A stretch of DNA of 43,339 bases, taken from NCBI RefSeq assembly GCF_003334315.1, contig NZ_QOWR01000042.1. The stretch is one strand, 5' to 3'. Numbering within the stretch: position 1 is the stretch's first letter; every line of letters begins with the position of its first letter. The notes under the pieces are model-generated. The model made no database searches. It was not told where the DNA came from and saw nothing but the letters and a program-made list of their open reading frames with translations. This document shows, in pieces, positions 2,959 to 25,493 of the stretch. Source of the DNA: Escherichia coli (GTDB lineage: Bacteria; Pseudomonadota; Gammaproteobacteria; Enterobacterales; Enterobacteriaceae). The position numbers and the translations under genes are program-made.

Positions 2959-3825
2959 TTAAGGGCGTGCGAGGAAATTCAGCACCAGTTGATTGAAAGC
3001 GTCGGCATGTTCCCACTGCGCCCAGTGACCACAGTCGCGGAAGATATGCAGTTCAGAACCGGCAATGCCGGACAGCAGACGCAGCCCCGCATCCATCGGC
3101 ACAAAGCGGTCGTTGCGCCCCCAGACAATCAGGGTTTGCGCGTTGATTTCCGCCAGACGTGGGCCAAAATCCGGGAACTGTTTCGGATTAGCTTCCAGGC
3201 TCTTAACGAAGTTTTCCAGGTGATCGCGGCGCGACAGCATATTATTCAGGCGCGCTTCAAACAGGGCGTCGGTCAAATCGCTGGTATCAAAAACGAAGAT
3301 ATCCATCATCAGCTTCAGGTTTTCGATAGTCGGCTGACGATAAAGCTGATTCAGTCGCTTAATACCTTCGGTTGGCATCGGCGTAAACAAACTCATGCCG
3401 CCCGTACCGCCGCCCATCAGCACCAGTTTGCCGACGCGCTCCGGCCAGTTAAGGGTGAACGCCACAGAACTATGGCCGCCCATCGAGTTGCCCAGCAGGT
3501 GGATTTTGGCGATATCCAGTTGATCCACCACACTTTTCAGGATTCGTGCATTAAGATCCGATCGCGAACCACTATTAACGATCGAATCGCTCTTGCCCCA
3601 ACCCGGACAATCCAGCAGGATCACCCGATAGCCCGCCTCTACCAGCGGATCGATATTGCGGCTGAAGTTCGCCCAGCCAGTAGCACCCGGGCCGGAACCA
3701 TGCAGCAGGACAACGGTTTCGTCGCCTTGTCCGCAGTCATTAAAATGGATGCGCAGCGTTTTACCCGCTTCTTCTACATTCAGAAAACGGCTGGTGGCGG
3801 CTTCGGTTTGTGGCTGATAACTCAT
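2959..3825 (-). CDS. mhpC: 2-hydroxy-6-oxononadienedioate (meta-cleavage product) hydrolase
   Basis: Alpha/beta hydrolase with GNSMGG nucleophile elbow; the ORF extends to 3888 but I chose the internal ATG (MSYQPQ...) giving 288 aa, which avoids overlap with mhpB; the start is uncertain. Confidence 0.8.
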
Positions 3826-17609: not shown

Positions 17610-18893
17610 TCAACGTTTGTAATCGATGGCTTCTGGCTGCTCCAGATATACGGTGGTTTGTGCCGGTTGTGTGCTGGCAATCACCTTGCCGCCACGTACC
17701 GAATAACGTACCGGAACCTGACGGCGCAGCGCATCAAACCCATTTTCAGCCGGCAGGATAATCAGGTTGGCGCTGTTTCCGGCGGCAATGCCGTAATCCT
17801 GCAAATTCAACGTCCTTGCGCTGTGGTGGGTGATTAAATTCAGGCCATCGTTAATCTGCCCGTAGCCCATCAACTGGCAAACATGCAGCCCCATATGCAG
17901 CACTTGCAGCATATTCGCCGTTCCCAGCGGATACCACGGATCGAAGACATCATCGTGACCAAAGCAGACGTTAATGCCGGACTCCAGCATCTCTTTAACG
18001 CGCGTGATGCCGCGACGTTTTGGATACGTATCGAAACGTCCTTGCAGATGAATATTGACCAGCGGGTTGGCGACAAAGTTAATACCGGACATTTTCAGCA
18101 AGCGGAACAGGCGTGAGGTATACGCCCCGTTATAGGAGTGCATTGCCGTGGTGTGGCTGGCGGTGACTCGCGCGCCCATGCCTTCATGGTGCGCCAGGGC
18201 AGCAACGGTTTCGACAAAGCGCGACTGCTCGTCATCGATCTCATCACAGTGAACGTCGATGAGACGGTCGTATTTTTGCGCCAGGGCGAAGGTTTTATGC
18301 AGCGACTCCACGCCGTATTCACGGGTAAATTCAAAATGCGGAATCGCCCCCACTACATCTGCCCCTAAGCGTAACGCCTCTTCCAGCAACGCTTCACCGT
18401 TGGGATACGACAAAATCCCTTCCTGAGGGAAGGCGACGATTTGCAGATCAATCCACGGCGCGACTTCCTGCTTCACTTCCAGCATTGCTTTCAGCGCAGT
18501 TAGCGTTGCATCCGAAACATCGACATGGGTACGCACATGCTGAATGCCGTTGGCAATCTGCCATTTCAGCGTTTGCCATGCGCGTTGTTTCACATCGTCA
18601 TGGGTTAATAACGCTTTGCGCTCGGCCCAGCGTTCAATGCCTTCAAACAGCGTGCCGGACTGATTCCAGTTCGGTTGTCCGGCGGTTTGCGTGGTGTCCA
18701 GGTGAATATGTGGCTCCACAAACGGCGGTATAACTAAACCTTGTTCGGCATCCAGGCTGTTTTCAGTTATGGGCATCACGCCGGATTGCGCATCAATGGC
18801 GCTGATTTTTCCGTCCTGCAGATGAATCTGCCACAGCCCCTCTTCGCCTGGTAACCGGGCGTTAATAATTGTTTGTAAAGCGTTATTCGACAC
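17610..18893 (-). CDS. codA: Cytosine deaminase
   Basis: Amidohydrolase with metal-binding HIH (EPHIHLD); GTG start giving 427 aa ([10 protein letters not shown]...); overlaps the codB 3' end by 11 bp. Confidence 0.9.
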
Positions 18894-20142
18894 TGTTAGC
18901 CTCCACATGCGTCATTGCTGCTGTCGTTTTACGATTCAAAATCGGGTTAAGGATCAGATAGCTCAGCGCGCCACCTAATACCGCGTTGACCGGAACAATT
19001 CCCGGTAACCAGTGGCCTGCAGCAATCCCCAAGGCGACCGCCAGAATCGCCACCCAATTGACACTCATCATACGCGTGGTCGCAAAGTGCTCATAGCGGC
19101 GACGGTTCATCAGATAGTCGGCAATGATCACGCCACCCACCGGAGGAATAGCTGCCGAAAGGAAGGTCAACCAGCCGACAAAATTGTTATACAGCCATAA
19201 TGCGCAGACCGTACCGATAATACCGTTGATTACCGAAAGGGTTTTGCTCGACATCCCGGTAATGTTGGCGAAACCTAAACCCGACGCATAGAGCGCGTTA
19301 TCGTTGGTGGTCCAGATATTTAGCCCCAGCACCACAATCGCAGGCAACAGCAGGCCCTGAGCAATCATCACATCAGAGATATCCGCCATCCCCAGTGCCG
19401 CAGCGCCCGCTGCACCGAAAATAAACATCAACGAGTTGCCGAGGAAAAAGGCCACCATCGCCACCAGCACCGCCAGTTTGGCATTGCGACCAAAGCGGAC
19501 AAAGTCAGCGGTGAGCGTGCCCGCACTGATAAATGACCCCACAACCAGCGCCAGCGCGACATTGAAATCTAACGGTTGTGCGGGAACGACCGCTTTTAAG
19601 GCGTCCAGGCCGCCCATGCCGTTAACGGCCAGCCATACGGAATAACCGCCAAGACAGGCGATAGCCGGAACCGCAATCACCGAAAGAACCGTCAGCGCCG
19701 AAATGCCAAAGAAGACGGTGACGGTCATCAGTAAACCGGAAACGGCAATCAGCAAATTAATATCCAGCCCGGTTGCCTTACCCACCGGAATAGCAAACAT
19801 CGCCACACCGACGCCAAACCAGCCAACCTGGGTGCCGCCCAGCAGCAGTGAAGGCAGCCATGAGCCTTTAACACCAAAAGAGAAGCGAGCAAGAAGATGA
19901 GTGGTCAGGCCGGTTTTTGCGCCAATGTAACCGAGAAATGAAGTGTAAATACCGAGGAGAAGATTACCGATGAGAACTGCGAGGAAGAAATCATGATAGC
20001 TAAGACCGGTTCCGAGAGTACCGCCGGTCCACATACTGGCGGAAAAGAAGGTTAATCCCAGCATGACGAACGTCAATGCCAATACCCCTTTCCGCGCCGA
20101 CTGCGGGACTGGCCCCTGGCTAAAGTTGTTATCTTGCGACAC
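18883..20142 (-). CDS. codB: Cytosine permease (NCS1 family)
   Basis: 419-aa polytopic membrane ORF upstream of codA. Confidence 0.9.
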
Positions 20143-20208
20143 GAAATTCCCCCTTTTTGCTGTTTGAAACCCAAAAAATCCGCCGCATTCTATTCATCTG
20201 AAGATAAA

Positions 20209-20224
20209 AAGCAATCGTTTTCGT
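20209..20224. promoter_or_regulatory. Candidate PurR operator upstream of codB
   Basis: Minus-strand ACGAAAACGATTGCTT resembles the PurR box (ACGCAAACGTTTGCGT-like palindrome), about 70-80 bp upstream of the codB start. Confidence 0.35.
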
Positions 20225-20294
20225 GGGGAAATATATTTTTTATATGAATGAGTGCAAAAAGGTGGGGGAAAAATTATCGGTGTAAAAACAGTGG

Positions 20295-20560
20295 GTAGGC
20301 CTGATAAGACGCGTCAGCGTCGCATCAGGCATCTGAGCATGGTGTCGGATGCGGCGCGAGCGCCTTATCCGACCTACGGTTCAGACCTGTAGGCATGATA
20401 AGACGCGCCAGCGTCGCATCAGGCATCGGCGCGGGGTGTCGGATGCGACGCGAGCGCCTTATCCGACCTACGGTTCAGGCCTGTAGGCATAATAAGACGC
20501 GGTAAGCGTCGCATCAGGCATCGGCGCATGGTGTCGGATGCGCCACGCGACGCATCCGAC
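20295..20560. repeat. BIME (three ~97-bp REP-pair units) between codB upstream region and the prpE 3' end
   Basis: Three tandem units of GTAGGCCTGATAAGACGCG...GTCGGATGCGGCGCGAGCGCCTTATCCGACCTAC. Confidence 0.8.
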
Positions 20561-20566
20561 AATACC

Positions 20567-25147: not shown

Positions 25148-25189
25148 GTTGTCCTCGTCATTGTTATCATTTGTAGGGTCGGGATTGTT

Positions 25190-25468
25190 GTCGGATGCGA
25201 CGCCATGCGTCTTATCCGACCTACAGTTCAGTTCACCCCGCAGGCCTGATAAGCCGCGTCAGCGGCGCATCAGGCATCGGTTGTCGGATACGACGCCATG
25301 CGTCTTATCCGACCTACAGTTCAGTACATCCCGTAGGCCTGATAAGTCACGTCAGCGGCGCATCAGGCATCGGTTGTCGGATGCGACGCCATCCGTCTTA
25401 TCCGACCTACAGTTCAGTGCACCTCGTAGGCCTGATAAGTCGCGTCAGCGACGCATCAGGCATCGGCT
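25190..25468. repeat. BIME (three 93-bp units) within the prpB-prpC intergenic region
   Basis: Units start at 25190, 25283 and 25376; GTCGGATGCGACGCCATGCGTCTTATCCGACCTAC... alternating with GTAGGCCTGATAAG... Confidence 0.8.
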
Positions 25469-25493
25469 GTCGAATACAATCAACGGGCGTTTT

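Follow-up and report, generated by a model that had tools for sequence, protein, structure and literature searches.

The 16-bp sequence ACGAAAACGATTGCTT, which precedes the codBA operon of Escherichia coli, is very probably a functional PurR operator of the codBA promoter, with its right half-site likely doubling as the -35 hexamer. It was located on the minus strand (20224..20209) of a 43,339-nucleotide stretch of an E. coli genome (contig NZ_QOWR01000042.1), the whole of which is called the window here. The corresponding plus-strand sequence is AAGCAATCGTTTTCGT. The feature is the codBA PurR site that has already been documented, and as such it is already known. A preliminary description of this DNA had reported a 16-bp PurR-like sequence on the minus strand upstream of codB. 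This is borne out, the 3' end of the box being situated 66 nt from the GTG start codon. Since codB is encoded on the minus strand, the box is in the sense orientation. Beyond lying upstream of codB, as that description had it, the box likely extends over the -35 hexamer of this promoter.

The genes of the window are arranged in the order mhp, lacIZYA, cynXST/cynR, codAB, prpEDCB/prpR and the yah genes, and the intergenic region between prpE and codB is 424 bp long. The features assigned to the codBA region are listed in Table 1. In a search of 5,426 complete E. coli genomes, a 701-bp stretch around the box was matched in every one, falling in the interval annotated as prpE-codB. The same stretch is identical in E. 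coli C, to which the window as a whole is about 98.9% identical over its full length, with insertions and deletions. Between E. coli strains (the window and the aligned locus L002) the flanking bases differ while the box is unchanged.

Table 1. Features of the codBA region in the window. Promoter positions are relative to the A start at 20179.
Feature	Coordinates	Strand	Remarks
PurR operator ACGAAAACGATTGCTT	20209..20224	-	-45 to -30; centre about -37.5
codB, cytosine permease, 419 aa	18883..20142	-	GTG start at 20142; open reading frame and RefSeq annotation, matching E. coli genomes
codA, cytosine deaminase	17610..18893	-	overlaps the end of codB; open reading frame and annotation
NAC-like element ATA-N9-TAT, ATATAAAAAATATAT	20231..20245	.	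strand unassigned; pattern match; centre -59; AT-rich
Likely -35 hexamer TTGCTT	20209..20214	-	3/6 match to TTGACA; 16-bp spacer to -10
-10 hexamer TAGAAT	20187..20192	-	followed by GCGGCGG; T, A and final T unchanged across 30 Enterobacterales promoters
Start region G(20180) A(20179) TTTTTT G	20172..20180	-	UTP-sensitive start-site switching and reiterative transcription; published sequence
Shine-Dalgarno sequence AAGGGGG	20149..20155	-	GG..G conserved

Several repeats are present in the window. Three tandem units of about 94 nt, composed of REP-like palindromes, form a BIME-type array at 20295-20561, between the stop codon of prpE and the codB promoter. This array is the cause of the many extra matches per genome that were obtained in the 701-bp search. 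Further internal repeats with a periodicity of about 93 nt are situated at 25187-25472, between prpC and prpB, and at 34951-35496, near yahH/yahG. The window has more repeat copies at 34951-35496 than E. coli C, which accounts for the difference in length between the two.

Compared with the published consensus ACGNAAACGTTTGCNT, the box has one mismatch in the 14 specified positions and contains the central CG. It is the sole match in the window when at most one mismatch is allowed, with 0.02 matches expected from dinucleotide-preserving shuffles. A tolerance of two mismatches, at which 0.46 matches are expected per window, is not discriminating by itself. Leaving out the codBA site, we derived a weight matrix from the remaining 27 PurR motifs that Cho et al. 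(2011) list in their Table 1. With this leave-one-out matrix the box scores 22.31 bits, the highest value in the window, and the next independent match is 8 bits lower. The exact tail probability of the score is 1.6e-8 per position. At this score one would expect 0.0014 matches per window, 1.3e-5 for the intergenic region of 424 bp and 0.15 for a genome of 4.6 Mb. Upon scoring each of the 28 ChIP-defined PurR sites in the same leave-one-out manner, the box was found to rank 4th. The preliminary description had proposed such a scan and named a poor matrix score as a refutation; this outcome is absent. The second and third matches to the matrix (3707-3722, 14.4 bits, and 2877-2892, 12.6 bits) fall in coding sequence, the former in that of mhpC. 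Both are at chance level, with 0.36 and 0.96 matches expected per window, respectively.

The PurR site of codBA in E. coli K-12 MG1655 is an identical 16-mer in the same prpE-codB context, and the window shows no substantive difference from it. The distance from the box to the codB start in MG1655 is presumably also 66 nt, as computed from the codB start coordinate that we assume for that strain. The canonical pur operators (purT ACGAAAACGTTTGCGT, purF/cvpA, purHD and purL) are, like the codBA box, 16-bp imperfect palindromes with a central CG, and their scores range from 22.2 to 25.4 bits, a range that includes the 22.3 bits of the codBA box. The codBA box departs from them at position 10, where A replaces T, and at position 15, where T replaces G. 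Unlike the canonical operators, it also has a right half-site that probably doubles as the -35 hexamer, and it belongs to genes of pyrimidine salvage and nitrogen scavenging rather than of purine synthesis.

The same 16-mer was given as the PurR motif at 354064-354079 of the MG1655 genome (Cho et al. 2011, PMC3159470). In that work tagged PurR was used for ChIP, and a peak at 354056-354323 in the ChIP-chip profile was assigned to codB-codA. The peak has a moderate log2 ratio of 1.41 and was observed with adenine only. It covers some 270 bp, within which the motif was located by motif search (PMC3159470). Adenine represses codB 34.5-fold, which is among the strongest effects on adenine-repressed genes, and both codA and codB are affected by deletion of purR and are included in the 23 genes directly repressed by PurR (PMC3159470). 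The curators of RegulonDB assign the codBA PurR site to their strong-evidence class, and the 1989 paper of Andersen, Kilstrup and Neuhard names a role of purR in the regulation of codA in its title. No in vitro PurR binding to the codBA box or mutagenesis of this operator was found in the literature covered here, in which the primary codBA promoter papers (Danielsen 1992, Qi and Turnbough 1995, Muse 2003 and Andersen 1989) figure through citations and titles. The purine-repressor control of codBA that the preliminary description had proposed is therefore supported by the identical published ChIP motif, the PurR repression of codB and codA, the RegulonDB classification, the matrix score and the cross-species footprint described below. 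The box combines a consensus palindrome with a score above background, a promoter position and conservation among orthologues, which places it among the PurR operators.

The initially transcribed region of codBA has been reported to be 5'-ATTTTTTG (PMC7039003, citing Qi and Turnbough 1995). Within the intergenic region this octamer is found a single time, on the minus strand at 20179..20172. The start nucleotides G 20180 and A 20179, which we take to be the G7 and A8 starts of Qi and Turnbough, are situated 7 and 8 nt after the -10 hexamer, which is the preferred distance. The sequence TAGAAT-GCGGCG-G-A-TTTTTT-G (20192..20172), in which the G and A starts are followed by at least six T, has the organization of a UTP-sensitive promoter of the codBA/upp type. 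The codBA start region GATTTTTTG has the same start-site switching and U-tract slippage as that of upp (GATTTTTTTTG). This likeness to the upp-uraA and pyrBI promoters concerns the start region beside the box, where UTP is sensed by RNA polymerase and no repressor takes part.

The last six bases of the PurR box, TTGCTT, are taken to be the -35 hexamer because of their spacing to the conserved -10 hexamer and to the known start region. An operator overlapping core promoter elements has been reported for 44% of PurR targets (PMC3159470). A different promoter, TTTGCA-17-TATATT at 20258..20230, was proposed by a consensus promoter scan, and relative to it the box would lie at about +1 to +16. This candidate was rejected, as it is not conserved across species and the published start ATTTTTTG lies about 50 nt downstream of it, behind the conserved TAGAAT.

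The conservation of the box was examined in 80 codB loci, which were collected by a protein-anchored search independent of the presence of a box. The 300 bp upstream of each codB gene were scored with the leave-one-out matrix. Boxes of at least 15 bits occupy one fixed position in the codB promoters of 28 of 29 Enterobacterales and of 9 of 10 Pasteurellaceae. In 300 bp, a match this good has a probability of 0.0018 by chance, and about 230 control segments of 300 bp from the same loci reached a maximum of 10.2 bits. The Enterobacterales boxes score 16-23 bits and have their 3' ends 57-67 nt from the start codon; they are found in genera that include Escherichia, Hafnia, Proteus, Citrobacter, Salmonella, Kluyvera, Edwardsiella, Morganella, Providencia, Budvicia, Pragia and Leminorella. 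The lone exception in this order is a Pluralibacter MAG, whose box, at the same place in the alignment, is degenerate. The Pasteurellaceae boxes score 18-21 bits and are situated 58-60 nt from the start codon. These promoters have the same composite layout, in which a box with TTGCTT as its last bases is followed by a spacer, by TAGAAT or TATAAT and then by GATTTTTT.

A MAFFT alignment of 30 enterobacterial promoters is free of gaps from the box through the -10 hexamer to the T-tract. In terms of mean column information, the box reaches 1.65 bits, the -10 hexamer 1.48 bits and the start region 1.88 bits, compared with 0.71 bits at unassigned promoter positions. Positions 3, 5, 6, 8, 9 and 11-14 of the box are invariant in these promoters and positions 4, 7, 10 and 15 vary. 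The conservation of each position among orthologues correlates with the information content of the PurR matrix, which was derived from unrelated E. coli promoters (Spearman coefficient 0.88, p = 6e-6). The variable positions thus mirror the degeneracy of the PurR matrix, as would be expected if the promoters were under selection for PurR binding beyond the -35 function.

Position 15 of the box (20210) coincides with position 5 of the putative -35 hexamer. All 30 Enterobacterales promoters have T, A or C here and the 9 Pasteurellaceae promoters have T or C, so that G is absent throughout; among the 27 other PurR sites of E. coli, 17 have G at this position. Position 15 may be under a dual constraint from the operator and from the -35 hexamer. 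A tentative interpretation, which we consider possible rather than probable, is that the operator, both promoter hexamers and the UTP-sensing start region together make up a module of about 55 bp with fixed spacing across Enterobacterales and Pasteurellaceae, in which the avoidance of G at position 15 would represent a compromise between operator strength and promoter strength.

A comparative study of 2008 found PurR in gamma-proteobacteria and reported that S. typhi and S. typhimurium are the only ones among 20 genomes to retain the link between PurR and codBA (PMC2329645). As judged from the promoter sequences, this claim is contradicted by the footprint with its fixed geometry, which all but one of the 29 Enterobacterales and all but one of the 10 Pasteurellaceae share. 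The Vibrionaceae have a different core promoter, and a good box is present in a minority only, upstream of the -35 hexamer. Loci lacking a box are those of Spirabiliibacterium, Marinobacter and Pseudoalteromonas and many of Vibrio. The codB promoters of Vibrio and Photobacterium (L027-L069) share a conserved core of TTGACT, about 17 nt, CATAAT and then CGCGCCGTTTGCC, situated about 60-130 nt upstream of codB. Their GTTTG resembles the reiterative start GUUUGC of carAB P1, which suggests that codB of these genera may have a different UTP-sensing start region. PurR-like boxes were also observed about 320 nt upstream of codB in three loci (L028, L037 and L081; 1170-1187).

The E. coli CodB protein is 94% identical to that of Hafnia paralvei (L003) and only 82-85% identical to those of Citrobacter or Salmonella. 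The codB promoters of E. coli and H. paralvei are nearly identical, including the unusual A at position 10 of the box. This hints that codBA might have been exchanged horizontally between the E. coli and Hafnia lineages.

Other explanations of the box have to be weighed against a PurR operator that overlaps the -35 hexamer. Short motifs do arise by chance, and with two mismatches allowed the window would be expected to hold 0.46 of them. However, the single mismatch of the box (0.02 expected), the tail probability of its score (1.6e-8) and a fixed position kept across two bacterial orders make a chance match without function exceedingly improbable. The conservation might also reflect the core promoter alone, the resemblance to a PurR box being incidental, as the 3' six bases of the box are the probable -35 hexamer. 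Yet the conservation reaches 10 bp upstream of the hexamer, with positions 3, 5, 6, 8 and 9 invariant, and the variable positions track the PurR matrix. The hexamer itself matches TTGACA at only three of six positions, and both PurR ChIP enrichment and purR-dependent expression have been published, so that this explanation is hardly credible. It is equally hard to believe that another repressor of the LacI/GalR family, recognizing a similar palindrome, occupies the box in place of PurR. The operators of this family share the central CG and the general palindromic layout, but the score of the box is among the top known PurR sites, the ChIP was performed with tagged PurR, and expression was changed in the purR deletion.

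The way in which PurR represses from this position may be considered together with the NAC-like element, which ends 6 bp upstream of the box. The 2003 study of Muse et al. is said to have given ATA-N9-TAT as the NAC consensus, with the codBA site at -59. Activation of codBA by NAC has been reported, and expression of the operon is Nac-dependent under nitrogen limitation. Two E. coli strains share the element although bases next to it are substituted. Its mean information across the Enterobacterales is 0.67 bits, and it is not conserved across the order. Its closeness to the box and the Nac-dependent expression would be compatible with PurR acting mainly by blocking activation by NAC, rather than by excluding RNA polymerase. 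This is unlikely, as the overlap of the box with the -35 hexamer is itself sufficient for direct occlusion, the spacing between box and promoter is kept in taxa where the NAC-like site is not conserved, and strong repression by adenine is seen in ordinary medium and not specifically under nitrogen limitation. Interference with NAC may make an additional contribution but is not needed to explain the repression.

Exclusion of RNA polymerase by PurR is suggested by the position of the box over the -35 hexamer, and steric occlusion at -35 is the most likely mechanism. PurR, a dimeric member of the LacI/GalR family, needs hypoxanthine or guanine as corepressor in order to bind DNA. With either purine in good supply, the dimer carrying its corepressor would occupy the imperfect 16-bp palindrome. 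Situated between -45 and -30, it would keep region 4 of sigma off the -35 hexamer, and the sigma-70 RNA polymerase would be blocked. Initiation at codBA would then be prevented, shutting off both cytosine uptake (codB) and cytosine deamination (codA). Two other signals also reach this promoter. The nitrogen signal acts through NAC, at a putative site centred near -59. The pyrimidine signal acts at the start region, where the use of G or A as start depends on UTP and is followed by reiterative transcription along the T6 tract.

The analysis confirms that a true operator is recognizable in this promoter from its sequence alone. As a minor correction to the literature, the link between PurR and codB is found at a fixed promoter geometry in at least two gamma-proteobacterial orders, beyond Salmonella. 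The site ties the availability of purines to the salvage of cytosine, and existing knowledge of this connection is unchanged.
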